Shown: in pieces, positions 1,766 through 34,033 of the stretch
Numbering within the stretch: position 1 is the stretch's first letter
Layout: every line of letters starts with the position of its first letter
UHGV virus genome: UHGV-0011871
Reading direction: 5' to 3' (one strand)
Origin: a virus
Length of the DNA: 61,028 bases
Notes under the pieces: generated by a model
What the model was told of the DNA's origin: nothing
The model's database searches: none
The model's input: the letters and a program-made list of their open reading frames with translations, nothing else
Program-made: the position numbers and the translations under genes

Positions 1766-2274
1766 CGTTTACCCCTCCCGAGTAAGTCTTCTATTTTTTC
1801 CTTGATGTTTTTACCTGCGTCGTCACCTTTCGGCTCCTTTGCTTCGTCAATCTTATCTTTAATGCCTCCGACGAATTCGCCGATCTTCGCTTGTGCTTTT
1901 TCGATTTCTTCTTTGAGTTCCTGCTTGCGCTCTTCGTTGAATACCTGCCGGTCTTCTTTTCGTAGGTCAGGGCGGAATGCCCACATGATGTCCCGAACGT
2001 ATTTCCTAGCGTTGATTTCTTCGAACGGCATTTCCGGTTCGATTTCCGCCTCGTCGAATTCGCTTTCCGGCAAATTCAAGTTAATGGCAACGTAAGTGTG
2101 AATACCGTCCCTGTCTTCGCAATTCGGACATTTGATTACGAGGTTTTCGTATTGCTGAAATTCCTCGATGTACTTCGGTCTGAAATCGGAAGGCACGTCG
2201 TATGTGAAAACCTCCGAGCACCGAGGACACGTAAGTTCGACCGTGCCGTCGGTGTAGTTACTTACTAATGACAT
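1762..2274 (-). CDS. zinc-ribbon protein (CPRC...CPNC), acidic C-terminal half
   Basis: Two CxxC pairs; sits between the receptor-binding protein gene and the lysis cassette. Confidence 0.45.
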   Translation of the reverse strand: MSLVSNYTDGTVELTCPRCSEVFTYDVPSDFRPKYIEEFQQYENLVIKCPNCEDRDGIHTYVAINLNLPESEFDEAEIEPEMPFEEINARKYVRDIMWAFRPDLRKEDRQVFNEERKQELKEEIEKAQAKIGEFVGGIKDKIDEAKEPKGDDAGKNIKEKIEDLLGRGKR

Positions 2275-11046: not shown

Positions 11047-11925
11047 TTATGCTAAACGGTCGTCCAGGACTAGGTGCAACGTACTCCGGCAACGTGGATG
11101 CGGATGCCGAATCTTTCGAGTACCGACCGGATAAACTCCTTTGCCCATGCCATGAGCGTCTACGTTAGCGTACTCGTAGCATTTGTGGCGTTCGTGCTCT
11201 CCGGCCTTACCGTGAGGGTAGTCTTGAATACGAAGCCCAGTAGCAATGCCGGATAACTCAGCAAACGTAGCGATTGTATTCCTATGGACGTAAAGTGTCT
11301 CCGTTTCGGCTATCGTCTTTAATCGCCATGCTAGCGAAGAGAATCCACGCTTTACCTTTCGGTTCATTTCGGAAGTGACTTCGCCTTTTCGGATACTTGT
11401 TCGAAGTGTGCCGGATACTTCCCGAATGATAACCCGTGAAATGTCTTGTAGCCTGTCGTTAAGCCGTAAGCCGTCGGAATCCTTACGATTGAAAGGAGTT
11501 CTCGCCATGTCTTGAATGAATTTTTCCGTGCTTTTGCCGATTAGTGCCGGAAACAGCAACGTGATGTCAGCTAGCGATTCCGCAAGTTCCTTGACCGCAA
11601 GTAACGCAGCTATATCGATTGCCGTTGCGATTGCCGTAGATAATCCGACTGCCGTAGCCTCGGCTGTGGCGTTGAACATGATTTGCAGTTCTGCTTGAAT
11701 GTCTCGGTAGATTTGCCCTTCCACTCTCGCTAGGTCACGGATAACCGCACCTTGCTTGTTTCGGGGAATGATACCGTTGCTGTCCGCATACTTCGCAAGA
11801 ATGTCCTCGACCATTAGCCTCGCTCTATCGGCTGCCCGAGTAAGCTGACCATACTTTCGTGGGAGAGTATTTTCGATGTTCTCGAGAAGTTCATCGATCT
11901 TAGCGTTGAATTGTTTCTGTCCCAT
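11047..11925 (-). CDS. minor capsid protein (SPP1 gp7 / Mu F-like)
   Basis: 292 aa; the Ala-rich helical central region and C-terminal 'HPHPRCRSTLHLV' resemble Mu F family head morphogenesis proteins. Confidence 0.45.
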   Translation of the reverse strand: MGQKQFNAKIDELLENIENTLPRKYGQLTRAADRARLMVEDILAKYADSNGIIPRNKQGAVIRDLARVEGQIYRDIQAELQIMFNATAEATAVGLSTAIATAIDIAALLAVKELAESLADITLLFPALIGKSTEKFIQDMARTPFNRKDSDGLRLNDRLQDISRVIIREVSGTLRTSIRKGEVTSEMNRKVKRGFSSLAWRLKTIAETETLYVHRNTIATFAELSGIATGLRIQDYPHGKAGEHERHKCYEYANVDAHGMGKGVYPVGTRKIRHPHPRCRSTLHLVLDDRLA

Positions 11926-11937
11926 CGGTAACCCTCC

Positions 11938-12324
11938 TTAGTAATATGGTCTGTCTGCTCGTGGGATTGCTCGGAATCTCGGTCCTGCTGTCCGTCCTGC
12001 TTCGTTTTTCTTTCGTTCGTATTTGCGAAACAATTGTTCAGCCATATTCCGGTACGTCTCCGATACCATTCGTTTGTCGACGGTTTCTTCGGCATCCTTG
12101 TACTGGAAGTAGTAAGCTGTCCGTAACGCAATTTGTAGCGTTCCGTCCCATTCTGCGTATAACAGAATTAGTAGCTGATCGGAGTCGGGCACGTCCTGCT
12201 CTAGGCGAAAACCATGTTCAAGCATCGACCGCTCAATCCAACCCTCCACGTCTGTTTGGTCAACGTTCGGGACTCCTCTAAATCGGGCAAGCAAAGCCGT
12301 TGCTAACTCTGATTTTGTCGCCAT
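11938..12324 (-). CDS. head-tail adaptor / DNA packaging protein
   Basis: Position directly after the capsid genes; 128 aa. Confidence 0.35.
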   Translation of the reverse strand: MATKSELATALLARFRGVPNVDQTDVEGWIERSMLEHGFRLEQDVPDSDQLLILLYAEWDGTLQIALRTAYYFQYKDAEETVDKRMVSETYRNMAEQLFRKYERKKNEAGRTAGPRFRAIPRADRPYY

Positions 12325-12341: not shown

Positions 12342-12566
12342 TTAGTCCTTCTTAGCGTCCGTTTTCTTTTTCTTCGTAGCCTTCTTCTTCGGCTTCTCTT
12401 CGGTTGTTTCATCTGCCTTTTTCTCGGCTTTCGGCTCTTCCGTAGATTTTAGTATTTCGCCGTAACCTACTCGCTCAAGATACTTCGCAGATTTCTCGTC
12501 TACCTCGATGGTAGTACCAGGGCCATGTCCGTTGACATAAGCCCCAGTGACTTTAACCTTCGGCAT
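12342..12566 (-). CDS. small lysine-rich head-associated protein
   Basis: 74 aa; the C-terminus is K/E-rich ('KKKATKKKKTDAKKD'). Confidence 0.35.
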   Translation of the reverse strand: MPKVKVTGAYVNGHGPGTTIEVDEKSAKYLERVGYGEILKSTEEPKAEKKADETTEEKPKKKATKKKKTDAKKD

Positions 12567-13582
12567 TAGACAGTGTAAACGTCTGCGTGGAAGATACGGC
12601 TAGGTTGCTCGATAGTCGGGAAGCCTGCTGCTACCGCTTCGATTACGGAACGGATAGGAGCACGTAAGTCCTCGGCTGTAAGAGCGATACCTGGATTGAA
12701 GTCGTTTTCTACCGTTGGTCCAAGCAAGAATTTGCCGACACCTTCGGATAGCATTACGACACGGTTAACTGGGAAGAACTCGATAGTTTCGTTCTCGCCG
12801 TTAGCAACGTTCTTAACTGTTACTTTACGGTTAGTAACGATGCTTACTGTCGGAAGACCGTAACCGCTAAGTACGGAATCCAATTCGCTGACAGATACAC
12901 GAGTACGTCCAGAACCTCCGCCTGCTGCTTCCGTGATGATTGTCGTATTTTTCAATAGCAACGCTTGAACTTCACGGGACATGTAGATAGCGTCAGGAGA
13001 TTCGCCGTTAGCTGTTTCGTACGCTTGGCTCCATTCCAAAAGATCGCCGATAACATCGTGGCTCTCGTCAGCCCATGTAGACTCAGTAAGAACTACTTTG
13101 TTTTCTGCCGGTACGCCGAAATCAACGTTAACTTCGATGCCGTGTTTCTTGTAAGTGAACTCGCCTTTAGCAAGTGCCTCCATTTTGATAACGTGAATAC
13201 GACGATTCAACGCTTCAACTAGCTGAACTGCTTCGAACGTAAGGTTGTCTACCATCGCTTGGGACTCGGCTGTAGAACGGGCTTGGTGCAACGCTAGCAA
13301 TTCCTCTTCGGTTGCTACGTATTTAAGACCCATCTTAGCGATTTCGCCTGCCATGCTAGCGACTTGATTGCGGTCTACTACCGGTGGCTCGGCTCCGTGT
13401 CCGATCATCGCTGCGATGTATTTGTTAGACTTGATAACGTCATATGCGAACTTCGTGCTGAACGTATTTTCGTTCGGTAGGTAACGGTCTGCGAAAGTCT
13501 CTTGTCCTTCCTGTACAGTTGCGTCTACCAATCCAAGTAATGCCGGTTTTTGAAATTCCTCTAAGTGTGTAATACCTGCCAT
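12566..13582 (-). CDS. major capsid protein
   Basis: 338 aa, following the scaffold gene; size and position are typical. Confidence 0.65.
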   Translation of the reverse strand: MAGITHLEEFQKPALLGLVDATVQEGQETFADRYLPNENTFSTKFAYDVIKSNKYIAAMIGHGAEPPVVDRNQVASMAGEIAKMGLKYVATEEELLALHQARSTAESQAMVDNLTFEAVQLVEALNRRIHVIKMEALAKGEFTYKKHGIEVNVDFGVPAENKVVLTESTWADESHDVIGDLLEWSQAYETANGESPDAIYMSREVQALLLKNTTIITEAAGGGSGRTRVSVSELDSVLSGYGLPTVSIVTNRKVTVKNVANGENETIEFFPVNRVVMLSEGVGKFLLGPTVENDFNPGIALTAEDLRAPIRSVIEAVAAGFPTIEQPSRIFHADVYTV

Positions 13583-20300: not shown

Positions 20301-20439
20301 TCTTCGATGAAAAACGAAATAAAACGAAATTAATACTTGCAATCGAAAGTACACGGTTATATAATTGCATTAGCCAGTTAGGAACGGCACGGAAACGATG
20401 CCTACCGACACGGCAACGAAAAAGAATTTTCGAAAGTTG

Positions 20440-20469
20440 TTGACACGGTTTAAGAGTCGATGCTATACT
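20440..20469 (+). promoter_or_regulatory. early promoter P1 (TTGACA-N18-TATACT)
   Basis: The -35 is TTGACA at 20440-20445 and the -10 is TATACT at 20464-20469, with an upstream A-tract. Confidence 0.6.
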
Positions 20470-20543
20470 GAAAAGGAATCAGCGACACGGCACGGTAAAC
20501 GTCAGTCGGGTTGTAACGATTCAAAAATAGTTTTAAAAAGTTG

Positions 20544-20573
20544 TTGACACGAAGAATGAGTCGATGCTACAAT
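20544..20573 (+). promoter_or_regulatory. early promoter P2 (TTGACA-N18-TACAAT)
   Basis: -35 at 20544-20549 and -10 at 20568-20573. Shares the spacer motif CGAAGAATGAGTCGATGC. Confidence 0.6.
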
Positions 20574-20662
20574 AAAAGGGAATCAACGGCTGTACGGCTT
20601 GCTAGTACGATTGAGTTCGGAAACCTACCGAAACGGCTGAAAAAAGATTGTCGAAAAAGTAG

Positions 20663-20692
20663 TTGACACGAACAATGAGTCAATGATACAAT
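20663..20692 (+). promoter_or_regulatory. early promoter P3 (TTGACA-N18-TACAAT)
   Basis: -35 at 20663-20668 and -10 at 20687-20692. Confidence 0.6.
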
Positions 20693-20770
20693 GAAAGAGT
20701 CGAAGGCAAGCCGGATGCAGAAGCCGGAAACCCGACACGGATAACGACTTGAAAGTTTTTTAAAAAGTAG

Positions 20771-20800
20771 TTGACACGAAATTAGTGTCATGGTAAACTA
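20771..20800 (+). promoter_or_regulatory. early promoter P4 (TTGACA-N18-TAAACT)
   Basis: -35 at 20771-20776 and -10 at 20795-20800. Confidence 0.5.
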
Positions 20801-21916: not shown

Positions 21917-22489
21917 ATGATTAGCGTAGCACTTACAAACTTAGGAAAATACAACGAAGGGACATTGGATTACGTATGGCTAGACTTACCGGCAACTGAC
22001 GAAGATATTGCGGAGGCATTCAAAACTATCGGAGTAGCTGACGGCACCGAATACGAGGAACATTTCTTGAGCGACTGGGACGCACCGGACTTCTTCGAAG
22101 TGGGTCAGTACTCGAGCGTGACAAAACTCAACGAATTAGCTGCAAAACTGGCGGAGATCGACGGCTTGGAGTCTATCTTTGACGGGACATACGAAGCAGG
22201 CGACATCGTAAACCTAGCCCACGAACTGGAAGCACAAGGACATATTCAAGATGCACACGACTATGTCGGGGACATCGTTTCAGACGAAGAACTTGACGAA
22301 ATGGTAAGACATGAGGCGGAATCAGGCGGATGGCAACGTGTGGCACACTTCCTAGACGGAATCAAATACATGTCGGAGGACTACTACTACATTAACGGAT
22401 ACGCAAACGCTGAGAACTTGTCGCAAGTCACGCTCGATGCAATCGTAGACGACATGATGAACGAAATAAAACGCAACTTAGAGGTATAA
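21917..22489 (+). CDS. ardA: ArdA-like anti-restriction protein (DNA mimic)
   Basis: The N-terminal 'LGKYNEGTLDYVWLDLPATDEDIAEAF...EEHFLSDWDAPDFF' matches the ArdA signature (KYN.G.L.G.WLDL ... D.EF ... F.DWEG.P). The protein is highly acidic. Confidence 0.7.
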   Translation: MISVALTNLGKYNEGTLDYVWLDLPATDEDIAEAFKTIGVADGTEYEEHFLSDWDAPDFFEVGQYSSVTKLNELAAKLAEIDGLESIFDGTYEAGDIVNLAHELEAQGHIQDAHDYVGDIVSDEELDEMVRHEAESGGWQRVAHFLDGIKYMSEDYYYINGYANAENLSQVTLDAIVDDMMNEIKRNLEV

Positions 22490-22584
22490 CAGGAGGCTTC
22501 CTGCCTCTTGCCGGACATCCGAAACGCTCGGGTACTCGGCAAGCGTTGGGAGGCGCTTATTAACTACGAAGGAGTGGAAACGAG

Positions 22585-22836
22585 ATGAACGAACTGACAA
22601 TAGTTGAGGAACTCGAGGACTTAGGTGTGCATGACGTGGAGGTCGAAAGCGTGGACGGTCACGCTGTTTACTACTACGGGATTCAATATGGAGTGCCTCA
22701 CGAATACAAGGCGGTAAGGTGCGACATGGCAGACGGTATCGAAATTTACCATCGGCATGAAGGCATGGAGGATTGGTACTACATGGTATTCATTGAAGAC
22801 GAAAACACTGAGGAGGACGATTGGGAATGGGAATGA
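22585..22836 (+). CDS. hypothetical acidic early protein
   Basis: 83 aa with an RBS (AAGGAGTGG). The C-terminus is 'EEDDWEWE'. Confidence 0.5.
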   Translation: MNELTIVEELEDLGVHDVEVESVDGHAVYYYGIQYGVPHEYKAVRCDMADGIEIYHRHEGMEDWYYMVFIEDENTEEDDWEWE

Positions 22837-23054
22837 TTAGCTGCGAATTCAAGACGGCACAAGAGGCGATTAGATACGCTCAGTCACACGGAGGATGGCT
22901 TTACTATCGATTGGAGGACGGTCACACGTTTTGGCACTGTCCGAGGACGTACATGATGCATGAAATTCTGCGGAAACATGCAGGCTCTGGCTACTGTAGT
23001 GCGTGGGTTGGTATGGAAGAATACGTAAACAATTTGGAGGCGAAATTATTATGA
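22827..23054 (+). CDS. hypothetical early protein
   Basis: ATG 10 nt after an AGGAGG; overlaps the upstream stop. Confidence 0.45.
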   Translation: MGMISCEFKTAQEAIRYAQSHGGWLYYRLEDGHTFWHCPRTYMMHEILRKHAGSGYCSAWVGMEEYVNNLEAKLL

Positions 23055-23587
23055 AAACAATCGTAAAAACATTCGAGGTATTCGAACTAAGCGAACTGAA
23101 AGGCGTGAACTACCGCAATGCGTTAGATGCGGTATCACGTCAGGCGTCCGAAGATTGGGCAGAATTTGAATCATACGAGTTGCTCGAGTCACTGAAAGAA
23201 TCTGCGGAACATTTCGGAATGAAAGTGACGGACTATTCCATCGGACTCTATGATCGATCTTACGTAAAAGTTGAGACAGGATACTTCGAAGAGGAACAGG
23301 CGGAACATGCAGTACAATGGATTGCGGATAACTACAAGGAAGGTGCGGACGGTACGTGTCCTTTCACTGGCGTATACTTCGATTGCTTCTTCTTCGACTA
23401 CTTCGTTAAGAACGGAGTACCAACGGAGGACAACGTCAAGGACGAGATTGTACGGGCAATCGGTTACATGCTCGAGACAGCCGTTGACAATGCCGAAAAA
23501 GATATGATGGACGATGACAGCCTATTGGACTACGCAATCAGCAATGAACTTTCTTTCTTATCAGACGGTGCAATTTATCACGGGTAA
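23051..23587 (+). CDS. hypothetical acidic early protein
   Basis: ATGA overlap with the upstream gene; RBS (GGAGGCG); 178 aa, acidic. Confidence 0.5.
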   Translation: MKTIVKTFEVFELSELKGVNYRNALDAVSRQASEDWAEFESYELLESLKESAEHFGMKVTDYSIGLYDRSYVKVETGYFEEEQAEHAVQWIADNYKEGADGTCPFTGVYFDCFFFDYFVKNGVPTEDNVKDEIVRAIGYMLETAVDNAEKDMMDDDSLLDYAISNELSFLSDGAIYHG

Positions 23588-23615
23588 CTGACACGAATTA
23601 TGAGTCGAATAAAAT
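23587..23615 (+). promoter_or_regulatory. internal early promoter P5 (CTGACA-N17-TAAAAT)
   Basis: Same family as P1-P4: 'CTGACACGAATTATGAGTCGAATAAAAT'. Confidence 0.45.
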
Positions 23616-23632
23616 AATCGGAGGCGGTAACA

Positions 23633-24085
23633 ATGAAAAAACAAAGATACTTTATACGAATCAAAGACGGCACACTTGGCGGAGAACGTGGACACATTTA
23701 CAAAGAGGCGACAAACGTCTTCCTTCCCGATGGCTTCGTAGCTTACACGAATGAATACAGTACGATGCCGGACGCTATCGAAGTGCATCCGGCAGACGAA
23801 CTCAGGGTAATTACGGCAGACCAATACAACCGAATTGCTGCCTGTGTCATGGAAGGTGTCGAAGCCGGACACGAAATCAAGGCGGTCATGGTTGCGGTAG
23901 AAGCCGAGGACAAAATCCTCGATAAAGTGGCGGAGTTTAAACGGGTAGCATCCGAGTTATACAGCCTGTGGGAACCCATTCCCTTCGCCTCTCCGGTTAA
24001 TCAACTACTAACCGATACGTACCCATTCGACAAGGATTTCCAGGAGGTTCTCGATGAAATTTGCAGGTGGGGAAATCGTAAGTAA
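23633..24085 (+). CDS. hypothetical early protein
   Basis: RBS (GGAGGCGG). Confidence 0.5.
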   Translation: MKKQRYFIRIKDGTLGGERGHIYKEATNVFLPDGFVAYTNEYSTMPDAIEVHPADELRVITADQYNRIAACVMEGVEAGHEIKAVMVAVEAEDKILDKVAEFKRVASELYSLWEPIPFASPVNQLLTDTYPFDKDFQEVLDEICRWGNRK

Positions 24086-24165
24086 TGCACGGGACTCCCG
24101 TCCCTTGTCTTGCGTCTGCTACGGCAGGCTCGAGCCAAGCGTTGGGAGGCGCTGAGAAATAATTG

Positions 24166-24194
24166 TTGACACGATATACGAGTCGTGATAATAT
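24166..24194 (+). promoter_or_regulatory. internal early promoter P6 (TTGACA-N17-TGnTAATAT, extended -10)
   Basis: 'TTGACACGATATACGAGTCGTGATAATAT' has the same -35-proximal 'TTGACACGA' and the 'GAGTCG' spacer core as P1-P5. Confidence 0.55.
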
Positions 24195-24228
24195 GTATTC
24201 AAGCGATCATAAACGAGGAGGAAACGAA

Positions 24229-24699
24229 ATGAAAAACGAAATGTACACTAGAGGGGTATTTACACCAACGGCACACGTTATCTGCTACAACTGCCACGAC
24301 ACAAGTTACAGACCATCCGATAAATTGGCGGACTCAAGCAAGCGACCATTGCAGGAAGGTAACGGGGTTACAAAGTGCGACATGTGCGGAACTGACATCC
24401 AGTTAGACTCAAGCGTAGCCGAGGAACATAATCTAGTAGCCGAGTTTAAAGCGCTAGGATTCGATGCGGTAATGGCACAAACTGGCGGTATGAATAGTGC
24501 ATGTGAGATTAATACGAAGGTTGAAGACGGTAAAATTATCGAATGGGTATCGATAACATTCGACTACTGCGGAGACTCGGAGTATGCAGCCTTGCACATT
24601 CTCGAGGAAGGCGACGACTGGGAGGACATCGTTTGTACTACGGACAAGGCGGAGTTTATGAAAGCTATCACGGAATTCGTGACGAAGGAGGAAAAGTAA
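24229..24699 (+). CDS. zinc-ribbon early protein
   Basis: ATG after a GGAGGAAACGAA RBS; CxxC ... CxxC. Confidence 0.5.
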   Translation: MKNEMYTRGVFTPTAHVICYNCHDTSYRPSDKLADSSKRPLQEGNGVTKCDMCGTDIQLDSSVAEEHNLVAEFKALGFDAVMAQTGGMNSACEINTKVEDGKIIEWVSITFDYCGDSEYAALHILEEGDDWEDIVCTTDKAEFMKAITEFVTKEEK

Positions 24700-25208
24700 T
24701 GATACTGAAAAGGTTTTATATAGACGGAATTGACGATAGCAACGCATTTTGGGGTTACTCAGTAGGCAAAACGTGGAACGGATGGGCGATGCCTTTGTTC
24801 TTGAAGGAACAAGCCGACAAGGTTGCGGAAGCATTCACCGCACAAGGCGATACTGTTACGTACAATCCACAAACGGATTCATTCATCGTATTACTGGACG
24901 GTGCTGACGAGTATGAAGTATTCAAAGGTGTCGAGATTGACGGGACAACGTACTACCCTATCGGAGCAGGCTCGTGGATATGGGACGAAGAGTACACGAA
25001 AGGCGAAGAACTTCGGGACTTCCGTAAGCATATGTACCATTCGGTCGAAACACTGCAAGACGAACTGGCCAGGCACGGGGACTACGATAACAGGTTCGAT
25101 CTTCACATCGAGTTAAACGGAAAACGTATATCACTGGAAATGTGTGCGGACTTGTACCATCGTTTAGGGAAATTCATTGACGAAACTATCGAGGAGGAAA
25201 GCGAATAA
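24699..25208 (+). CDS. hypothetical early protein
   Basis: TAATG overlap with the upstream gene; RBS (AGGAGGAAAAG). Confidence 0.5.
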   Translation: MILKRFYIDGIDDSNAFWGYSVGKTWNGWAMPLFLKEQADKVAEAFTAQGDTVTYNPQTDSFIVLLDGADEYEVFKGVEIDGTTYYPIGAGSWIWDEEYTKGEELRDFRKHMYHSVETLQDELARHGDYDNRFDLHIELNGKRISLEMCADLYHRLGKFIDETIEEESE

Positions 25209-25483
25209 TGAAAGCGAATCTGACAGCGTTTGGAATGCCAATACTGACGGGCCTACTGCTCGTCGGTCTTTGGATGAACGCACCGGACAGTGGGACGGAA
25301 TGCACCACGGCAGACTACGCTCACATCCCGTATGCCGAGTCTTTTGACTTCCGGTGTACCGAAGACACTATGACGGTTTACAATGCGGAGACGAGCGATG
25401 TAATAGCGACTGAGGCACGATGCAAAACGAACGAAGTTAAAGCCGAAGACGGCACATGTGTACCTGAGGACTTCTACGAATAA
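25208..25483 (+). CDS. small secreted / lipoprotein-like early protein
   Basis: N-terminal signal-like hydrophobic segment; four Cys. Confidence 0.45.
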   Translation: MKANLTAFGMPILTGLLLVGLWMNAPDSGTECTTADYAHIPYAESFDFRCTEDTMTVYNAETSDVIATEARCKTNEVKAEDGTCVPEDFYE

Positions 25484-25502
25484 ACGAAACGAGGCGATAA
25501 CA

Positions 25503-25691
25503 TTGTTAGTATTACTATTTTGGTTCCTCGGTGTTCCGGCAATCATATCGGTGATATGTACCCCGTGGAGAGGTTCCGACTTCCTAATTATGAGCCGGAT
25601 TAAAGCCGTATTCGAATATACAACGGTAGTAATGATGCTCGTAGGATTTATCATGATACTAGGATACTTTGAAGCAAATATGAGAGGATGA
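25503..25691 (+). CDS. small membrane protein
   Basis: TTG start after a GAGGCG; two TM helices. Confidence 0.35.
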   Translation: MLVLLFWFLGVPAIISVICTPWRGSDFLIMSRIKAVFEYTTVVMMLVGFIMILGYFEANMRG

Positions 25692-25697
25692 TAGACG

Positions 25698-26021
25698 ATG
25701 GCAATGAGTAAACGGGACTATGCGGAGTTACTGCGTGACGCTTCGCAATCGATGATGGACGTTGTTAAGGCGATAGACAAACTGTACTATGACGTAGAGC
25801 CACTGGACGACTATAAGGAGTTTGAAGACGAATTGAATCAGACGGCTAAGAGTGCGATTGAGGACGCAATCAACGTACGTCAGATGTTCAAGCGACTAAT
25901 CACACTCGAGGACTTAGCGTTGAAAGTCGATGCAGTAGCCGATCACCTGCATTTAAGTGCCGGAGAAAACGAATACAACGGCGAACTGGACACGGGAATA
26001 CCGTGGAAGAACGAAGATTGA
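25698..26021 (+). CDS. hypothetical early protein
   Basis: RBS (GAGAGGA). Confidence 0.45.
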   Translation: MAMSKRDYAELLRDASQSMMDVVKAIDKLYYDVEPLDDYKEFEDELNQTAKSAIEDAINVRQMFKRLITLEDLALKVDAVADHLHLSAGENEYNGELDTGIPWKNED

Positions 26022-26118
26022 CGGGCATGTCTCCCGTCCCTTGTATAGCATCCGAGCCACCCGTTCGGACGTTATCCAAGCGTTAGGAGACGCTTATAAA
26101 ACACGAGGAGGAATCGTA

Positions 26119-26409
26119 ATGACAACGACTACTAAACAGGAAGCATTTATCACGGAACTTCGCCTGACTGCGATAGCTTTGCAGAAAGCAATCCCGACTA
26201 TGGATGAACTGAACGGGAGATTGTACGAACTGACTCACGAATACGAGCACGAAGTCAATCGGCTTCCCGAGCATGACGAGCAACTGATTCTCGAAGCAAA
26301 GGAAATGTTCATGAACCTTCCGGTGTGGTCAACAATGACAGACGTAGCTAACGGACTTGTCGATCTTGTCAACGATTTAGAAGCGAAGCAAGGCGAAGGC
26401 AAGCAATGA
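26119..26409 (+). CDS. hypothetical early protein
   Basis: ATG after a CGAGGAGGAATCG. Confidence 0.45.
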   Translation: MTTTTKQEAFITELRLTAIALQKAIPTMDELNGRLYELTHEYEHEVNRLPEHDEQLILEAKEMFMNLPVWSTMTDVANGLVDLVNDLEAKQGEGKQ

Positions 26410-26615
26410 CACTAGCCGATAAGATACGGGCACAAGCACGGGTTAAGGCGGTCGAGATACCGCCCCCTGGGGCTACCCAACGATGCAAAGACGCACTAGA
26501 CACGTACTTTTTCGGAGGGACACCGTGCAAGTCCGATGCCTTATGGTTCTACGGATTCGCTACGTTAGCCCTCGTAACAATAATTTTACTCGGCACGATT
26601 AACGTGCTATTATAG
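26406..26615 (+). CDS. small membrane protein
   Basis: ATGA overlap with the upstream gene; C-terminal TM helix. Confidence 0.4.
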   Translation: MTLADKIRAQARVKAVEIPPPGATQRCKDALDTYFFGGTPCKSDALWFYGFATLALVTIILLGTINVLL

Positions 26616-26618
26616 GAG

Positions 26619-26876
26619 GTGACATGCATTATGGGAGTGAAACAATTGATTCAATCTAACCTGAAAGAACTGTTACACGCTAGACGGCTGACGATTCGTG
26701 AGTTCTCACGTATGATCGACTACCGATTCGAGTCTGTACGTCAACTGTATAACAACGAATCCAAGCAGGTTCCGCTAGCCCTAGTCGAACGGGTTTGTTT
26801 GGAACTTCGCATAACTCCGGGCGAACTATTCACGGTGATAGACGCTAACGGAGAGGCAATACAACCGAAGCACTAA
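26619..26876 (+). CDS. XRE-family HTH transcriptional regulator
   Basis: 'LTIREFSRMIDYRFESVRQLYNNESKQVPLALVERVCLELRITPGELF' is a typical HTH_3 fold; RBS (AGGAGGTG). Confidence 0.6.
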   Translation: MTCIMGVKQLIQSNLKELLHARRLTIREFSRMIDYRFESVRQLYNNESKQVPLALVERVCLELRITPGELFTVIDANGEAIQPKH

Positions 26877-26903
26877 ATCATACGAACAAACGGAGGGGAA
26901 ACG

Positions 26904-27080
26904 ATGCAAGAGTACATGATAGGAACGCATAAGTTCGAATGTAACGATGAAACCGAGGCGTTACGTATAGCAAAGCGTACCATGTTCGAAAAAGGATGGC
27001 GCAATCTTCGCTTATTGCGAAAAGAAACTGACGGATGGAACGTATGCCAAGTGATACCTAGCTTCAATACTAATCGATAA
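26904..27080 (+). CDS. hypothetical small protein (58 aa)
   Basis: Not in the ORF track. RBS (GGAGGGG), 4 nt spacer, then ATG. Confidence 0.35.
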   Translation: MQEYMIGTHKFECNDETEALRIAKRTMFEKGWRNLRLLRKETDGWNVCQVIPSFNTNR

Positions 27081-27693: not shown

Positions 27694-27727
27694 GCCCTCC
27701 GTCCAATCGACGGGGGCTTTCTTCTTA
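27694..27727. terminator. bidirectional rho-independent terminator
   Basis: 'GCCCTCCGTCcaatcGACGGGGGC' hairpin flanked by an A8 run upstream and TTTCTTCTT downstream, between convergent genes. Confidence 0.65.
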
Positions 27728-27745
27728 TCATGGCGTGATACCACG

Positions 27746-28171
27746 TCACCAACTATTATGAAACGACCTAGTATTCGGTGTGTAGTCCGTTCCATCGGTC
27801 GCTACGTTGACACCGTGAGTGATTGGCACTTCGTACGTAACTACTCCTGCCTTGTTCTTCTTACGCTCGGAGCCTTGCGTACGTACCTTGTACATTCTCT
27901 CGGACATTATCGGGTACTCCTCGAGCGTCATTTTGTCAGGATGTGAGTCTGATAATTCTTCGTGCAGAATCACGTTAGCCAGTCGCTCAAGCAACGGCCC
28001 GTCAGGTGTTTTTCCCGTCTGCTCTACGTATGCATCCGTCAAATCTTCGACCATTTGCATACGGGCATCCCGAGGAACCTCACCTACGGACTGTTCTAGT
28101 TGCTGTACGTACTCTTCCATTCTCGACTTATAGTTAACACCAAAGCTGTATTGATTAGTTGACATATTCAA
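27746..28171 (-). CDS. hypothetical protein
   Basis: 141-aa ORF; last gene of the leftward replication-module transcripts. Confidence 0.4.
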   Translation of the reverse strand: MNMSTNQYSFGVNYKSRMEEYVQQLEQSVGEVPRDARMQMVEDLTDAYVEQTGKTPDGPLLERLANVILHEELSDSHPDKMTLEEYPIMSERMYKVRTQGSERKKNKAGVVTYEVPITHGVNVATDGTDYTPNTRSFHNSW

Positions 28172-28493
28172 GCGCCTCCCACTCTTCGTATATGTTCGCG
28201 ATCTTCTTTATTGCAGTTGCTACGTGCTTTGTAATCATTGGCTGACTAACTCCCATACGTTGGGCGGTATCCTCTTGACCTAAGTCATAACGGAAATATA
28301 GCGACAAGGCTTCACGCTGCTTATCCGTCAAGTCAGCCAGTTCGATTGCACGGTCAAGCGTCATTAACTCGTCGGCTAGGTGCCACTTACCTGCGTACAT
28401 TTTCTTCTCATTTAAATCCTCGTAACCTTCTAGTAATGCTTTTACATAAATCTCGTGTTTTGTTAATGTCATTGACAACGGACTTCCTCTCAT
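28155..28493 (-). CDS. ArpU/sigma-region-4-like transcriptional regulator
   Basis: 'LTDKQREALSLYFRYDLGQEDTAQRMGVSQPMITKHVATAIKKI' is a sigma-70 region-4 / ArpU-type HTH. Confidence 0.5.
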   Translation of the reverse strand: MRGSPLSMTLTKHEIYVKALLEGYEDLNEKKMYAGKWHLADELMTLDRAIELADLTDKQREALSLYFRYDLGQEDTAQRMGVSQPMITKHVATAIKKIANIYEEWEALEYVN

Positions 28494-28525: not shown

Positions 28526-28918
28526 ATGACTGGTAAGACGAAACAAAGCGAAACGTTTTCATGGATTTCGAATAAATCCGCAGTAGCTTACGTGACTATC
28601 GATAACCTACGAAGACTATACATTTCCAAACCGACTAAGGAACTCATGGGATTACCCGATGGAAAGTTCCGCCTCATTGCCGGATACGATTTCGCCAACA
28701 ACCGCATAGTATTGGCAAAGCCGGAAGTCGTCCGTGTGTCAGACGTGAAGCCGTTCAACTTCGACAAGCGAGGCTACTCGAATGCGAAGCATTTCGTAGA
28801 ACGTGCTAACCTTACGACCTTGCCGATTCGCTTTCTCTACAAAGGTAAAGATTATAGCGAGTACCCTGACGGTGCTTATTGCTTCGAACTAGACGGCTCA
28901 ACTCCCGAGGATCGGTAA
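28526..28918 (+). CDS. hypothetical protein
   Basis: ATG after an AAAGGAGTG; a lone plus-strand gene. Confidence 0.4.
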   Translation: MTGKTKQSETFSWISNKSAVAYVTIDNLRRLYISKPTKELMGLPDGKFRLIAGYDFANNRIVLAKPEVVRVSDVKPFNFDKRGYSNAKHFVERANLTTLPIRFLYKGKDYSEYPDGAYCFELDGSTPEDR

Positions 28919-30223
28919 CAGACGCTCGCCTAACGCTTTGATAACAGGGACACTGACAGCGTTGCCTGCCATCTTGTATCGTTGAGAATCGCTTATGCCT
29001 GCGTCTACAATCGTCTGATGCACCTCGTCCGAGAATCCTTGCAATCGGAAGCACTCGAGAGGCGTTAGCTTACGGATACGATATTTAGGCTCAGGCTCTA
29101 CAATGTGCGTCCTGCGTCCCTTTCCGACTAGGCTCGGGGCAGTACCCTTCCAGTAATTAGCGTCAAGGCAGCACGACACGCCTTCGCCTTCGGAGAACTG
29201 CTCGACGTTTCCTTTCAGTACCATCGAGTCTTTCGTAACGGACGTGACCGTGTTTCCTACGTCGTCCTTACGTATCTCTAGCTGTTCGCCTTGACCACGA
29301 TAGTTCCGGCTCCTGGTCGAACATCCTTTGACTTCCTCGGCTTGCTCGGCTTGCTCGGCTTTCTCGAGTACCGACGGCAAGTGACCACCTCCGGCTGACG
29401 TTCGGATAGTTGGCGATTCCCCATCGAATAACCTCGGCTTATCTTCCTTGAATCCTCCGTAGATATTGTGGATGCATTTCGGTGTATTTGCCGTGTCCTG
29501 CTCGTCTAGCTTCGCAACTAACTCCGCAACCTTTTCGTCAGGCAGGTAATACTTTTCGTCCACTACCGGCTCGAGAACATCGATCAGCTTAACTGTGACT
29601 TCCTCTTGCTCGGGCCAGTCGAAGTTAAACGTCTTGATTCCTTCGTATCCCATTATCCTGCGTTTCCCCTTCGGTACTACCTTCGAACCTTTCGTATTAA
29701 CCCACTCTTCGTTTTCGATTAAATCCTCACGTACAGCTACGCAGAACCACCTCTCACGATTCTGAGGAACTCCGAAGAATTTAGAGTTTAGAACCTCGAA
29801 GTCCACTCGATACCCTATATCGTTCAATGTCTTGACAATCGTATCTAACGTCTTTCCTTTGTCGTGAGATATTAAGCCTTTGACATTTTCTAGCAACGCC
29901 ACCCTTGGCTGCTTCTCTTTTAAGATTCGTGCGACCTCGAAAAACATCGTCCCTCTAGTATCTTCGAATCCTCCCCGTTTGCCTGCGACCGAGAACGGCT
30001 GACACGGTATTCCTGCCGTTAACAAGTCGTGGTCCGGCACGTCTGCTTCGTTTATCTTCGTTATATCTCCGTGTAAATGTTCCCCACCGTATATAGCTTC
30101 GTACGCCTTCGATGCATACTTATCGATTTCGGAAGCCATTACACATTCTCCACCTAACTGATTTAACGCTTGCTCGAATCCGCCCGTCCCAGAAAAGCAT
30201 GATACATACTTGAATTTACTCAT
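28898..30223 (-). CDS. DNA (cytosine-5)-methyltransferase
   Basis: Motif I 'FSGTGGFEQAL', motif IV 'PCQPFSVAGKRGG', motif VI 'ENVKGL' and C-terminal 'QRYKMAGNAVSVPV'. Start taken at the internal ATG with an AAAGGGGA RBS. Confidence 0.85.
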   Translation of the reverse strand: MSKFKYVSCFSGTGGFEQALNQLGGECVMASEIDKYASKAYEAIYGGEHLHGDITKINEADVPDHDLLTAGIPCQPFSVAGKRGGFEDTRGTMFFEVARILKEKQPRVALLENVKGLISHDKGKTLDTIVKTLNDIGYRVDFEVLNSKFFGVPQNRERWFCVAVREDLIENEEWVNTKGSKVVPKGKRRIMGYEGIKTFNFDWPEQEEVTVKLIDVLEPVVDEKYYLPDEKVAELVAKLDEQDTANTPKCIHNIYGGFKEDKPRLFDGESPTIRTSAGGGHLPSVLEKAEQAEQAEEVKGCSTRSRNYRGQGEQLEIRKDDVGNTVTSVTKDSMVLKGNVEQFSEGEGVSCCLDANYWKGTAPSLVGKGRRTHIVEPEPKYRIRKLTPLECFRLQGFSDEVHQTIVDAGISDSQRYKMAGNAVSVPVIKALGERLLPILGS

Positions 30224-30858
30224 ATTATCGTCCCCTTTCGTGACGTTTTCGTCACACAATCCGCATCTTCCCATCCTCGGTACTTCCGAGAACATGCCGT
30301 CTTATAGTTGACTCCGAACTCTTCGCACCAATCCTTCGCATGTTTTGTGACTCCATCGATTGTTATGTGCCATGCGTAATCTCGGTTCCTACTTTGCTCT
30401 ACGTTAGTAACCCATCGACAATTATCCGGCTCATATCCTCGTGCATTGTCCTTCCGATCAATCGTTAATTTATCGGTATAGCCATTAGTTACCGACCAAT
30501 CTCGGAATGCCTCGTAGCTTTTACTCCACTCCTCAGATAACATAATGCCTTTCGCCCCGTAACTCTCGTAGTTGGGGGAGTTAGGGTTCTCGCACCTCGT
30601 TTTTATATTCGTCCATATGCTGTACAGACGAGTTCCTGCTTCTCCATGCGTTCGCATAAGGGATGCGGTATTCTCTACTCGCTTACATCCGCAACTTTTC
30701 GTCTTGCCCTGACGCAGATTGCCTATGTGAAAGTTCTTAACCGTACCGCAGCTACATCGGCACTTGTATACCGAGGAGCCTGGACTTGACTCCACGAACT
30801 CAAGTACGGTTAACTCTCCGAATACTTTTCCGATATTCCTCTCACGCCCGTAAGCCAT
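30220..30858 (-). CDS. Zn-ribbon protein with conserved phage W/Y-rich C-terminal domain (often annotated AP2/HNH-associated)
   Basis: 'CRCSCG..CGC' ribbon, then 'YSIWTNIKTRCENPNSPNYESYGAKGI...LTIDRKDNARGYEPDNCRWVTNVEQSRN'. ATGA-coupled to the methyltransferase. Confidence 0.4.
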   Translation of the reverse strand: MAYGRERNIGKVFGELTVLEFVESSPGSSVYKCRCSCGTVKNFHIGNLRQGKTKSCGCKRVENTASLMRTHGEAGTRLYSIWTNIKTRCENPNSPNYESYGAKGIMLSEEWSKSYEAFRDWSVTNGYTDKLTIDRKDNARGYEPDNCRWVTNVEQSRNRDYAWHITIDGVTKHAKDWCEEFGVNYKTACSRKYRGWEDADCVTKTSRKGTII

Positions 30859-31287: not shown

Positions 31288-31875
31288 TTACCGACTCTCC
31301 TTCGTTTGTTTTCGTTTACTTAGAAAAACCTTGCCCTCTTCTCCCGTGAACCTCCACCGATAGCCACCGTGCGTATCCTTCTTTAACTGACAGCAGCGAT
31401 GTACCGCAGCCTTATCGAATCCTGCTTCCCTCGTACTGGATACCGAGGGCCATTGCTTGATTAACTCGTTTGTTTTCGGGCATATCTGACTCACTTTTCG
31501 AGCCATTGAAGCCGAGTTTAACCGGAGAACCTCGTCATTCCTCAGTCCTGTTTCGTAGGCATGTCGGGTATTTTCAGCCGGTGTTACATACTCGAGATTT
31601 TCTTTGCGGTTATTGCGTTTGTTACCATCGATATGATTTACTTGCGGTTTATTTTCGGGGTTAGGTATGAAGGCTTCGGCAACTAGCCGATGGACGAATA
31701 TGTGCTTCGACTTACCGCCGATCTTTAACTGGATTCGCTCATATCCGCCCTTGTCGACTTGGTTCTTTCGGATGCGTTCCCTTCCGGTTCTCGTGCTTTT
31801 GACTCTGCCTCGGTCAGACACGAAGTACCCAGGGAAACCGTCAATAGCTGCCCATGTTTCACTCGACAATTTCAA
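31288..31875 (-). CDS. HNH homing endonuclease (NUMOD4 + HNH_3)
   Basis: '[20 protein letters not shown]...GYERIQL...[28 protein letters not shown]'. Confidence 0.75.
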
Positions 31876-32799: not shown

Positions 32800-33507
32800 C
32801 TATTTTAATAATTCGTTTAAACTTACTGGGAAATGCGGTTCTACGAGTTCCTTAACGGCTCTAGCATACGCCTGTATCTCCGCCTGGCTATCGTGGGCCA
32901 ATCGTTGATTTAAGAAGTGTGCGACCGACTGTAACGATGCTGTCCAGTAGTAGCGAATATACATTCCGTAAGCCGGTAAGAATAACCTCGCTTGCTCAGG
33001 TGCTACACCTCGCTTCAATGCCCGTTCGTACTGCGGAATGCACTCGTCCAGTAGCTTCATAAGTTCGTACGTATTAATTCCGCCTTCTTCCTCGGACATT
33101 AACTCTCCCGAACCCTGCTTGGAGTTTTCCGGTGCCCTTCGCCATTCTCCGGCACTTGGTACGTAGAACTCAGGCTCTTCGGTAATGTACCGTCGGCTCG
33201 ATTCGTTCCATGCCATCATCGGGTCGGATGTCGCTTCCAAGATCGACGAACCTACGAGGTACTTGAAGTGCTGACGTGCCACCATTAGTGGCGAGTACAC
33301 TTCGAATTGAAGCATCGCATGTCGGAACGGTGACGTATGCCCTTCCCTCGCTAGGAATGCGAGTAGCTTCGCATCCTTTTCGTCAAACTCCTCGGACTTT
33401 TTGTTATATGACGTTCTAGCTGCATTTACTGGGGTCAGGTCGCTTCCCATTACCTCATGTAAAATTACATAACCCTTATCATCTAATACGTTGACTTTAT
33501 TTAACAT
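32800..33507 (-). CDS. ThyX-like (flavin-dependent thymidylate synthase family) protein, divergent active-site motif
   Basis: Colinear with T. maritima ThyX ('DKGYVILHEVMGSDL..NAARTSY', 'HTSPFRHAML.F', 'ARQHF', 'ESSRRY', C-terminal 'FLNQRLAHDSQAEIQAYA'), but the RHR motif is replaced by KYL. Confidence 0.6.
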   Translation of the reverse strand: MLNKVNVLDDKGYVILHEVMGSDLTPVNAARTSYNKKSEEFDEKDAKLLAFLAREGHTSPFRHAMLQFEVYSPLMVARQHFKYLVGSSILEATSDPMMAWNESSRRYITEEPEFYVPSAGEWRRAPENSKQGSGELMSEEEGGINTYELMKLLDECIPQYERALKRGVAPEQARLFLPAYGMYIRYYWTASLQSVAHFLNQRLAHDSQAEIQAYARAVKELVEPHFPVSLNELLK

Positions 33508-34033
33508 CTGCGTAATTCCTCCTAGTGTGTATTAAGTAAATGCAGTTTCTTGTGACTCCGAAGTCTTTTCCAATATCAACGCCGGACTCTCCTGCATCCC
33601 GTCTACGTCGAATCTCTCGGACTTCTTCGTCAGTAAATTTGCTATTATGTGCCCGACTCGGCTGACTTGCTCTTGCGATCTTTCCCGTTCGTGACCGTAC
33701 CTCGGAAGGTTTATCCAACTCGTTTTGTGAGTACGTCCCTAGAACGATGTTTTCCTTCGATACATTCTCCGTATCTGCATCTAAGTGCCGGACGACTATT
33801 CCGTCTTTGAACGTCTCCTCTCCGTAAAAACAGTAGGCTGCGAACTTGTGGACTGGAATACCGTAGACTCCCGAACCTGTTAATGAACCGACGTTTGCTG
33901 AGAATGTTGGATACCTTTGAGTTCCCCGTTTCTTTATTAGCAACGGATTTCCCTTTAGTCCGAGTAGAGTGCCATCCTCGGTCACTCGGTAACCTTTGTC
34001 GTAGGCAACTTTTATCGCCTCAATCATTCCCAT
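33497..34033 (-). CDS. HNH homing endonuclease (HNH_3)
   Basis: 'GYRVTEDGTLLGLKGNPL...GIPVHKFAAYCFYG...VRHLDADTENVSKENIVLGTYSQN'. Confidence 0.7.
   Translation of the reverse strand: MGMIEAIKVAYDKGYRVTEDGTLLGLKGNPLLIKKRGTQRYPTFSANVGSLTGSGVYGIPVHKFAAYCFYGEETFKDGIVVRHLDADTENVSKENIVLGTYSQNELDKPSEVRSRTGKIARASQPSRAHNSKFTDEEVREIRRRRDAGESGVDIGKDFGVTRNCIYLIHTRRNYADVK

Follow-up and report, generated by a model that had tools for sequence, protein, structure and literature searches.

A conserved long RNA hairpin between early genes of an uncultured phage: a possible mRNA processing and stability element

Why should the same string of 18 nucleotides return in three intergenic gaps of a single phage operon? 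The question is raised by the virus genome UHGV-0011871, a stretch of 61,028 nucleotides, the whole of which we term the window. Between the open reading frames (ORFs) of a (+) strand island that extends from about 20.3 to 27.7 kb, the 18-mer CAAGCGTTGGGAGGCGCT is found exactly at 22540-22557 and 24136-24153, and a variant with two mismatches, CAAGCGTTAGGAGACGCT, at 26077-26094, also on the (+) strand. A first-pass annotation made from the sequence alone had listed these three copies, the last one with its two substitutions, and had held that they did not look like chance similarity. Both statements stand: on both strands of the window, with up to three mismatches allowed, there is no further match to the 18-mer, while 0.03 matches are expected by chance and none of 100 shuffles gets to three. 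The 18-mer belongs to a much longer hairpin, which is a real and well-supported RNA motif, and for which we tentatively favour a role in the processing and stability of early mRNA.

Folding of each intergenic gap makes the 18-mer the 3' arm of one imperfect hairpin of 65-70 nt. The annotation had described a small GC hairpin ahead of each 18-mer, as a separate feature. The hairpins all exist (GGGAC..GTCCC at 24091, GACGGG..CCCGTC at 26020, and GAGGC..GCCTC, which starts at 22493 and not at 22494), but the separation does not hold: the 3' half of each stem-loop, together with CTTG, is complementary to the 18-mer, and the two form the base of one long hairpin. This right half plus CUUG constitutes the 5' arm, with the consensus YUYCCYGYCYCUUG. 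Pairing begins with a CUUG/CAAG helix, followed by a lone C-G pair, then by YCCYG/UKGGA and by one to three more pairs. The lone pair is flanked by two pyrimidine-pyrimidine mismatches, making an internal bubble that is conserved in all canonical copies, and the lower stem is conserved in sequence (5' YUYCCYG / 3' UKGGAGR). The conserved arms are short, 13-18 nt. Between them stands an apical stem-loop of 28-33 nt, the sequence of which is unrelated from copy to copy. In the 11 copies that were folded, the long hairpin is always the minimum-energy structure, with 23-28 pairs, enough for over two helical turns, and an energy of -27 to -40 kcal/mol. The apical loop is cUACGg (a UNCG loop), an RNA-specific stable tetraloop, in half of ten copies. 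Finally, a purine run resembling a Shine-Dalgarno (SD) sequence (GGGAGG, AGGAG or, in the related contig L203, GGAGGUG) is present in the ten canonical copies, with no start codon attached to it.

The three copies of the window share this plan. Copy 1 (22493..22558, + strand) starts 4 nt past the stop codon of the ArdA gene; its 5' arm, CTTCCTGCCTCTTG, lies at 22497-22510 and its variable apical stem-loop at 22511-22539, directly before the 18-mer. Its minimum free energy is -33.9 kcal/mol (26 pairs, six of them G-U; z = -3.8 against shuffles), and covariance models give it 80.8 bits (R1) and 77.9 bits (R2). Copy 2 (24090..24154, + strand) starts 5 nt past the stop codon of a 150-aa gene, with its 5' arm, ACTCCCGTCCCTTG, at 24094-24107 and an apical stem with the cUACGg loop at 24108-24135; it folds at -32.6 kcal/mol and scores 84.3 bits with R1. 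Copy 3 (26029..26091, + strand) has its 5' arm, TCTCCCGTCCCTTG, at 26030-26043 and its apical stem at 26044-26076, ahead of the variant 18-mer; it reaches -29.2 to -31.2 kcal/mol and 70.6 bits (R1). Run on the window with its filters off, the covariance model finds no copies but these three.

That the pairing matters is apparent from the way in which it has changed. Over nine copies (a separate MAFFT alignment of eight copies agrees), standard pairs occupy 96.1% of the pair cells, and in 10 of the 23 pairs both partners have changed, which makes 32 cells. The alignment has a covariation score of 0.568; shuffles give 0.229, and not one in 500 comes as high. As a control, sliding the 3' partners by one to three columns brings pairing down to 37-48%. 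Double changes lie mostly in the apical stem. Indeed, the apical stems differ wholly between paralogues, yet their pairing is compensated, which argues for selection on RNA structure and not on DNA homology. The conserved part also shows compensation: CUUG/CAAG has become CUUU/AAAG in contig L204, and in copy 3 the change of GGC to GAC (G to A) is matched by C to U in the 5' arm, turning a C-G pair into U-A, the other substitution of this copy giving a C.A mismatch. All three arm substitutions of L203, and the single one of contig L211, keep the pairing. Each copy comprises between two and six G-U pairs. The sense (+) RNA folds better than its reverse complement, by 9 kcal/mol on average, and covariance-model scores are 61-87 bits in sense versus 14-31 bits in antisense; all copies are oriented with transcription. 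The annotation had proposed a signal read at the RNA level. Compensatory changes, G-U pairs, strand asymmetry and UNCG loops together support this proposal, for the sense strand of the early operon. One orthologous pair points the same way, with less force. Copy 2 and the copy of L203, a collinear relative, are 94% identical (28 of 28 positions in the apical part), while identity falls to 65% in the gene directly upstream, and to 52% at its third codon positions; the region being mosaic, this contrast between element and gene is suggestive of purifying selection, not proof of it.

How widespread is the element? A search of related phages for the 18-mer, put forward by the annotation as a check, found it again in the closest relatives. 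Pattern scans combined with protein-anchored retrieval yielded ten canonical copies: the three of the window and seven in six related phage contigs, namely two in IMGVR_UViG_2936463923_000002 (terminase 79% identical) and one each in L196, L203, L204, L206 and L211. The clade that bears them is made of uncultured phage contigs, with the layout of the window: one strand carries terminase and portal, and next comes a divergent early island with ArdA in it. Diverged versions are found after ArdA, clear in L209 and probable in L207 and L214. The L209 copy keeps the architecture, as long hairpin only (-40 kcal/mol, z = -5), with GGGAGG replaced by GAGA; since the architecture is retained despite this loss, the hairpin is the feature conserved at greater distance. 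The closest cultured phages are the Bacillus phages phBC6A51, PHBA67-T and Mgbh1 (terminase 55-60% identical), and one ArdA homologue comes from Bacillus sp. 7894-2; from this terminase identity and this homologue we infer a Bacillus-like host.

Farther away the element disappears. Relatives with a terminase identity of 60-72%, including phBC6A51-like prophages of Bacillus cereus, have no copy within 10 kb of the terminase. Rfam gave no match for the whole window at gathering thresholds, and none for 22400-26200 at E values up to 5. Against 50,697 phage records, blastn found no match to the 5.5-kb region in near or distant mode, and for the 73-nt element alone only a chance match of 22 nt in a Caulobacter phage. 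The gapped pattern CTTG-N(20-45)-CAAGCGTTRGGAG hit 120 viral loci, all of which the covariance model rejects except the already known L001. A stricter pattern met chance matches only in 185,579 species genomes, and one true contig, L196, in a metagenome collection. In the viral collection, a degenerate two-arm pattern found the same relative again and nothing more, and a protein-based locus search with a 178-aa early protein found nothing. The genome-wide pattern scan thus places the motif only in this phage clade and, as far as these searches reach, the family is rare and confined to a small group of uncultured phage contigs. The exact core AACAAGCGTTGGGAGGCGCTGA was also met just upstream of ATG in four alphaproteobacterial and soil contigs (L185, L197, L201, L202); the hairpin is absent there, and these proteobacterial occurrences were treated as unrelated or chance matches.

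Two further structures were seen beside copies of the element in relatives. In L206 (4910-4930), a strong SD with a start-stop mini-ORF (AAGGAGGAAAGATGTAA) comes right after the element, followed by an extended -10 promoter and the next gene. L207 (8660-8700) and L209 (2790-2825) share a second conserved small hairpin, ACGGUCC-n-GCGACCUUAAACGGAGG, located between the diverged hairpin and the next gene, just ahead of the ribosome-binding site.

The element also sits at junctions where single genes are inserted or deleted, a position absent from the annotation's account. Contig L203 is collinear with the window over 21922-27032, at 72-91% identity, and BLAST blocks and junction sequences show that it lacks exactly two segments of the window, each made of one element and one gene. 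The first, at 22497..22825 (+ strand), comprises copy 1 and an 83-aa gene, and is precisely absent from L203; the second, at 26022..26405 (+ strand), comprises copy 3 and a 96-aa gene, and at the corresponding site of L203 the two flanking genes overlap by ATGA. Each missing segment starts either immediately past the stop codon or on the opening base of the conserved 5' arm. Among the copies of other contigs, a flanking gene homologous to one of the window is found only for L203, L204, L206 and L211, on one side each; after ArdA, the window and L211 have both kept the element, with different genes downstream of it. In view of the two insertions or deletions, and of flanking genes that are mostly unrelated from phage to phage, the element marks boundaries where single early genes come and go. 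It was also observed that the left arm of the local hairpin of copy 1 (AGGAGG; window 22487-22497) corresponds, in L203 (565-585), to the SD of the next gene, the insertion point of the copy 1 cassette lying exactly between this SD and its start codon.

A second fold, of three small hairpins, competes with the long one. Taken by itself, the 18-mer gives the hairpin AAGCGUU-GGGA-GGCGCUU (-5 to -7 kcal/mol), much as the annotation had it; the stem has 5-7 bp, and the loop is a GNRA-like GGGA in all of the ten copies but copy 3, where it is AGGA. A GC-rich local 5' hairpin, of -8 to -15 kcal/mol, lies 0-8 nt past the stop codon in 13 of 14 gaps. It is CAGGAGGC-uuccu-GCCUCUUG in copy 1 (22490..22510, + strand, -13.5 kcal/mol), where it and the base of the long hairpin are mutually exclusive. 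In copy 2 it has the core GGGAC-uccc-GUCCC (24087..24108, + strand, -10.1 kcal/mol) and in copy 3 it is GACGGG-caugucu-CCCGUC (26020..26038, + strand, -8.9 kcal/mol), overlapping the upstream TGA stop codon at 26019-26021. In contig L212 the local hairpin is present without the 18-mer, immediately ahead of a promoter. Ensemble probabilities computed for ten copies, each in 130-150 nt of native context, give the long hairpin at least 0.69 in six copies, 0.41-0.56 in three and 0.04 in copy 3. For copy 1 the value is 0.93 (131-nt context); for copy 2 the ensemble is split, with 0.43 for the long hairpin and about 0.4-0.56 for three hairpins. In such models the folds are nearly degenerate. This could make a switch, or could provide, after cleavage, a 3' cap to the upstream message and a 5' cap to the downstream one, or could be incidental.

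What, then, is the hairpin for? The annotation had offered three functions: an RNase processing site, a translational operator bound by a protein, and an antitermination element. The first agrees best with the sequence data, and the other two are disfavoured: antitermination because no terminators lie downstream of the copies, and the operator because the element keeps clear of the ribosome-binding site, at a distance from the start codon that varies. By analogy with known phage systems, we regard an intercistronic mRNA processing and stability hairpin, of the RNase III type, as the leading explanation, though we give it less than even confidence. Each copy would be a cis-acting structured RNA in a polycistronic early transcript running from the promoters at 20.3-20.8 kb to the terminator at 27.7 kb. 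The leading candidate for the nuclease is the double-strand-specific RNase III of the host; alternatively, RNase Y might act on the A/U-rich sequence that follows the stem closely on its 3' side. Separate messages would thus be made from the long early mRNA. On stems with internal loops, RNase III usually makes one cut, on the 3' side. After a single cut there, the upstream message would retain the hairpin as a guard against 3' exonucleases, while the downstream message would begin in or beside the 18-mer, with GGGAGG or the 7-bp hairpin of the 18-mer perhaps keeping the 5' exonuclease RNase J1 away from its new end. Cleavage, the nuclease responsible and the stabilising role are all inferred. 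As for precedents, the RNase III targets of B. subtilis are described as fairly stable stem-loops in which small internal bulges occur (PMC4838370); where an SP82 or T7 target has an internal loop, it receives a single cut, placed downstream (PMC1935012); and SD-like sequences near the 5' end, such as the SP82 polypurine element and STAB-SD, stabilise Bacillus mRNA according to work cited in PMC7509114 and PMC3997798.

The geometry of the element (more than two turns and a small bubble) and its setting in a host-transcribed early operon liken it to the RNase III sites of T7, SP82 and SPO1. The T7 sites R0.3, R0.5, R1, R1.1 and R1.3 are likewise several related hairpins in the intercistronic gaps of an early operon read by host polymerase, which also starts with tandem strong promoters and an anti-restriction gene. 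With SP82 and SPO1 as with T7, the early region here has in common tandem strong sigma-A promoters, the anti-restriction gene in first position, many small genes and a terminal terminator. The T7 stems, again, extend over about two helical turns, with a small internal loop in between, and this shape leads to one cut, on the 3' side (PMC1935012). They differ from the element in having no sequence similarity to it; the host here is Bacillus-like, the lower stem of the element is conserved in sequence, with its SD-like GGGAGG, and its cleavage is only predicted.

SP82 and SPO1, the Bacillus phages, come closer still. Bs-RNase III sites in their early mRNA were reportedly described by Panganiban and Whiteley in 1983, Mitra and Bechhofer in 1994 and Stewart et al. 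in 1998. In their early regions, too, a structured motif of about 65 nt recurs between genes, its conserved flanks enclosing a variable GC-rich inner hairpin, 25-40 nt ahead of the next start codon. In the SPO1 host-takeover module (NC_011421) we observed this motif as GUUGCUAGU-[variable GC hairpin]-(C/U)AUGGAGCC-N4-GGCUACUA, in at least six copies, in the gaps 5723-5888 and 7114-7211 (+ strand) and 11777-11851, 12194-12272, 12381-12526 and 12698-12793 (- strand); it is not annotated in the record. It is probably the mapped SP82/SPO1 RNase III signal. It is unrelated to our element in sequence and has a different topology, and model R2 found no match in the module, which is reported to contain RNase III sites (PMC3896407). 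In summary, the element has the irregular stem of about two turns, the intercistronic early position and the internal bubble of an RNase III site, with cleavage as the predicted consequence, and shares no sequence homology with such sites (R2 on SPO1, Rfam, blastn). The likeness being structural and positional and not one of sequence, we see in it a previously undescribed family within a familiar type of signal; by sequence comparison, no described family has it as a member.

Several observations weigh against a processing hairpin. Neither the T7 sites nor the SPO1 intergenic motif are related to the element in sequence. The conservation of the lower stem exceeds what a generic double-strand nuclease would need, which suggests a sequence-specific partner. 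A promoter follows the element in copy 2, L203 and L206, so that the mRNA initiated there does not contain it. The competing fold of three hairpins finds support as well: all four substitutions within the 18-mer are also compatible with its own hairpin; the stems of the local 5' hairpin covary (GAGGC/GCCUC, GGGAC/GUCCC, GGGGC/GCCCC, GGCGC/GCGCC and others); and in copy 3 the three-hairpin form is dominant (P = 0.95, 136-nt context). GGGAGG is gone from the diverged copies of L209 and L214. Finally, L196 carries near 2248-2263 (minus strand) a solo exact core, AGCGTTGGGAGGCGCT, without a complementary 5' arm, 10 nt past a stop codon and 25 nt ahead of the next start codon; either the 18-mer hairpin works alone or this is a decayed copy.

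Other explanations were weighed. The hairpin might stabilise messages without RNase III, independently of nucleases or in an RNase Y-type process, as a 3' barrier for the upstream message and a 5' structure for the downstream one; if there were a cut, RNase Y would make it, in the single-stranded A/U-rich sequence past the stem. An A/U-rich unstructured stretch does follow every copy (UUAUUAACUAC, UGAGAAAUAAUUG, UUAUAAAACAC etc.), and the GC-rich local hairpin, directly past the stop codon in nearly all gaps and found in L212 without the 18-mer, resembles there an independent gene-end module. Yet this would leave unexplained the invariant lower stem and the internal mismatches kept across paralogues and phages, and a 25-bp stem goes far beyond the needs of a 3' barrier; we find the explanation unlikely, though not negligible. 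With a bistable switch or operator, the alternation between the long hairpin and three small ones would tune translation or decay of the downstream gene, triggered by a ribosome terminating 0-8 nt upstream, or by a phage or host RNA-binding protein sitting on the 18-mer hairpin and its GGGA loop. The folds are near-isoenergetic (long-hairpin probability 0.04-0.56 in four of ten copies), every observed substitution fits both of them, the stems of the local 5' hairpin covary, and the 5' arm is anti-SD-like (CUCCC / CUUCCU) where the 3' arm is SD-like; the strict conservation suggests a specific binder, and the solo core of L196 lies 25 nt ahead of a start codon. Against this, the element never overlaps a true SD or start codon, and its distance to the ATG varies, at 21-37 nt or at about 75 nt with a promoter in between. 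The annotation's figure of 15-30 nt to the next ribosome-binding site has to be corrected: in copies 1 and 3 the 18-mer stands 11-12 nt ahead of the next SD, and in copy 2 about 62 nt. No RNA-binding domain was recognised among the early-gene proteins, and the diverged L209 copy retains the long hairpin only. A switch seems to us an outside chance, of the same order as a stabiliser independent of RNase III. The element might, alternatively, belong first to the DNA, its arms persisting mainly as short homology patches for the exchange of single genes between co-infecting phages, as in the PeSL cassettes of T4-type phages, with an RNA role that is secondary. Two precise insertions of element plus gene relative to L203, flanking homologues limited to one side in four contigs, an element kept after ArdA while the next gene differs, and the PeSL-like coupling of stem-loop and early promoter in copy 2 and its relatives (PMC2839356) speak in favour of this view. 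But arms of 13-18 nt are short, the compensation in the apical stem points to RNA structure, no recombination products were observed, a promoter accompanies some copies only and a terminator-like U-tract none, and we hold this explanation, too, to be rather unlikely. A more novel possibility would be a portable bistable leader, a 65-nt module that both bounds single-gene early cassettes and sets their expression. Its short homology would let phage recombinases shuffle genes, so that it would operate at DNA and RNA levels, the choice between long and small hairpins being cued by termination of the upstream-gene ribosome or by a binder of the 18-mer; it would be the phage early-gene analogue of integron attC sites or of PeSLs. 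We consider this a little less likely again.

Roles in transcription or at the level of DNA fare worse. A nut- or put-like antitermination signal, with the 18-mer as a boxB-like site bound by a protein or by RNA polymerase, or else a terminator or attenuator, would suit the 7-bp hairpin with its GNRA-type loop and the intergenic location within an early operon. Like a lambda-type nut site, the element offers a small hairpin with a GNRA-like loop; unlike it, it comes with no antiterminator domain in the early genes and no terminators between copies to override. No U-tract stands behind the small or the long hairpin: none follows any 18-mer, the sequence past the long hairpin is A-rich or mixed, and nothing more than CUUG or CUUU follows the small 5' hairpin. 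No terminator-like site lies between the copies, the sole strong one of the operon on the + strand being at 27696. No boxA-like partner was identified, no systematic search for boxA having been made, nor any N- or Q-like protein; three copies in one operon differ from the nut/put layout, and the long-range pairing can form only once RNA polymerase has passed. An intrinsic terminator, requiring a GC-rich hairpin with a direct U-run, was dropped. All this makes a transcription-level signal improbable. A repressor operator, or a promoter for a phage-specific polymerase or sigma factor, would account for 18 conserved bp some 25 bp upstream of start codons and for the partial palindrome AGCG...CGCT. 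It would not account for copies that all point along transcription, for compensatory changes in a variable spacer of 28-33 nt, for the many G-U pairs or for the large strand asymmetry; moreover, neither a phage RNA polymerase nor a full sigma factor was found among the proteins of the window, the only sigma-like one being a small region-4 protein encoded on the other strand, and the early promoters bear a different palindromic box. The promoter variant was dropped for this lack of an enzyme, and a DNA-level site seems to us very improbable; even taken together, the transcription-level and DNA-level roles deserve little credence. A small ORF starting after GGGAGG was likewise discarded, as no conserved start codon lies behind it, and so was a tRNA-like or other known RNA, there being no match in Rfam, the only resource used here, as ARAGORN was not run.

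Some of the systems just evoked merit closer comparison. PeSL cassettes are conserved intergenic stem-loops among small early genes, found at single-gene insertions, deletions and replacements (PMC2839356, PMC4122927). Our element also stands between a stop codon and the next SD, clustered among small early genes of no assigned function and at insertion, deletion or replacement junctions between close relatives. It differs in that a PeSL is made of a sigma-70 promoter and a terminator stem-loop, whereas the element has an adjacent promoter only at copy 2, L203 and L206, none at copies 1 and 3, and never looks like a terminator; its conserved part is the stem itself, with RNA-type covariation. 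The SD-based 5' stabilisers (SP82 polypurine, cryIIIA STAB-SD), in so far as the citing papers describe them, likewise place an SD-like run, with no start codon of its own, ahead of the actual ribosome-binding site, but the purine run of the element is paired inside the hairpin in uncleaved RNA and is lost in L209 and L214. In Cluster K mycobacteriophages, the SAS motif contains GGAG and recurs ahead of many genes, in some cases preceded by an inverted repeat, the ESAS; SAS is a 13-bp motif at the ribosome-binding site, and the ESAS inverted repeats are 17 bp with a spacer of 4-13 bp and no compensatory changes (PMC3203893). The likeness lies in an asymmetric, one-directional, conserved motif with GGAG; the element, by contrast, is 21-37 nt from the start codon, has a separate SD 11-26 nt beyond it and arms 28-33 nt apart, and its pairing covaries. 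Integron attC sites (RYYYAAC ... GTTRRRY) were rejected on reading by eye: the 3' arm, GTTGGGA/GTTAGGA, ends in a non-pyrimidine, and the 5' arm has no RYYYAAC.

Should the processing reading be true, a little-studied clade of Bacillus-type siphophages would contribute a new family of intercistronic RNA signals, one defined by its sequence. To our knowledge, mapped phage mRNA processing sites in Gram-positive hosts have hitherto been essentially those of SP82 and SPO1. Being conserved in sequence and carrying an SD-like run, the lower stem would make a compact system in which to ask what features other than double-strandedness are read by Bacillus RNase III, or by another factor, and how processed 5' ends escape RNase J1. 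The position at insertion/deletion junctions gives a handle on the shuffling of early accessory genes between phages. With reference to operon design in Bacillus, a 65-nt insulator or processing element is a possible practical yield. None of this would overturn current ideas, and processing hairpins in a phage early operon will not surprise the specialist; three features make an experiment worthwhile, namely the sequence specificity of the lower stem, an alternative fold of nearly equal energy and the link to the boundaries of gene cassettes.

The operon in which the elements reside is driven by a cluster of five tandem sigma-70-type promoters (20337..20799, + strand), with 10-11 of 12 consensus matches and, in four of them, the TG of an extended -10. 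Its ArdA anti-restriction gene (21917..22489, + strand; PF07275, E = 4e-20; phrog_2059), with the stop codon TAA at 22487-22489, lies directly upstream of copy 1. Twelve nt past copy 2 comes an internal promoter, which the annotation had correctly recognised: TTGACA-17-TAATAT with an upstream TG (24166..24194, + strand), conserved in L203. The operon is closed by an intrinsic terminator at 27696..27726 (+ strand), an 8-bp stem (6 GC) followed by CTTTCTTCTT. A terminator scan flagged, on the + strand, only one part of an element, the 5' stem-loop of copy 2 (24089-24104; 5-bp stem, interrupted T-tract), and on the minus strand the reverse complement of the copy 3 5' stem-loop. The island also encodes a DUF4352/Sie-like protein, a Cro/C1-type helix-turn-helix protein and many small proteins without recognised family. 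The rest of the window codes for DNA polymerase A, primase, a DnaB-type helicase, ribonucleotide reductase, ThyX, dUTPase, PhoH, a C5 methylase, HNH endonucleases and an integrase.

Some minor observations concern this genetic neighbourhood. The early promoters share a longer box, GTTGTTGACACG-N7-GAGTC-n-TG-TAnAAT, found on the + strand at 20436-20458, 20540-20562, 20659-20681, 20767-20789, 23584-23606 and 24162-24184, and also in the relatives L130 (the contig with two copies of the element), L196, L203 and L212. It contains an imperfect palindrome, TGACACG...(C)GAGTCA, overlapping the -35 region and the spacer, which in its sequence looks like an operator for a repressor or an early shut-off protein; the Cro/C1-type protein (26619-26876) is a candidate binder. 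Adjoining the island, a 112-aa protein, essentially sigma-70 region 4 (28155-28493, - strand), is conserved in L206, L208 and L209 and is probably a late-gene activator of the RinA/ArpU type. The C5 methylase of the window (28898-30295) has 465 aa and no Hint domains, while its orthologue in L206 (9524-11788, - strand), a C5 DNA methylase of 754 aa, has Hint (intein) domains. Finally, two genes resembling homing endonucleases of the HNH/NUMOD4 type (31288-31875 and 33497-34033, - strand) lie on either side of the thyX region.

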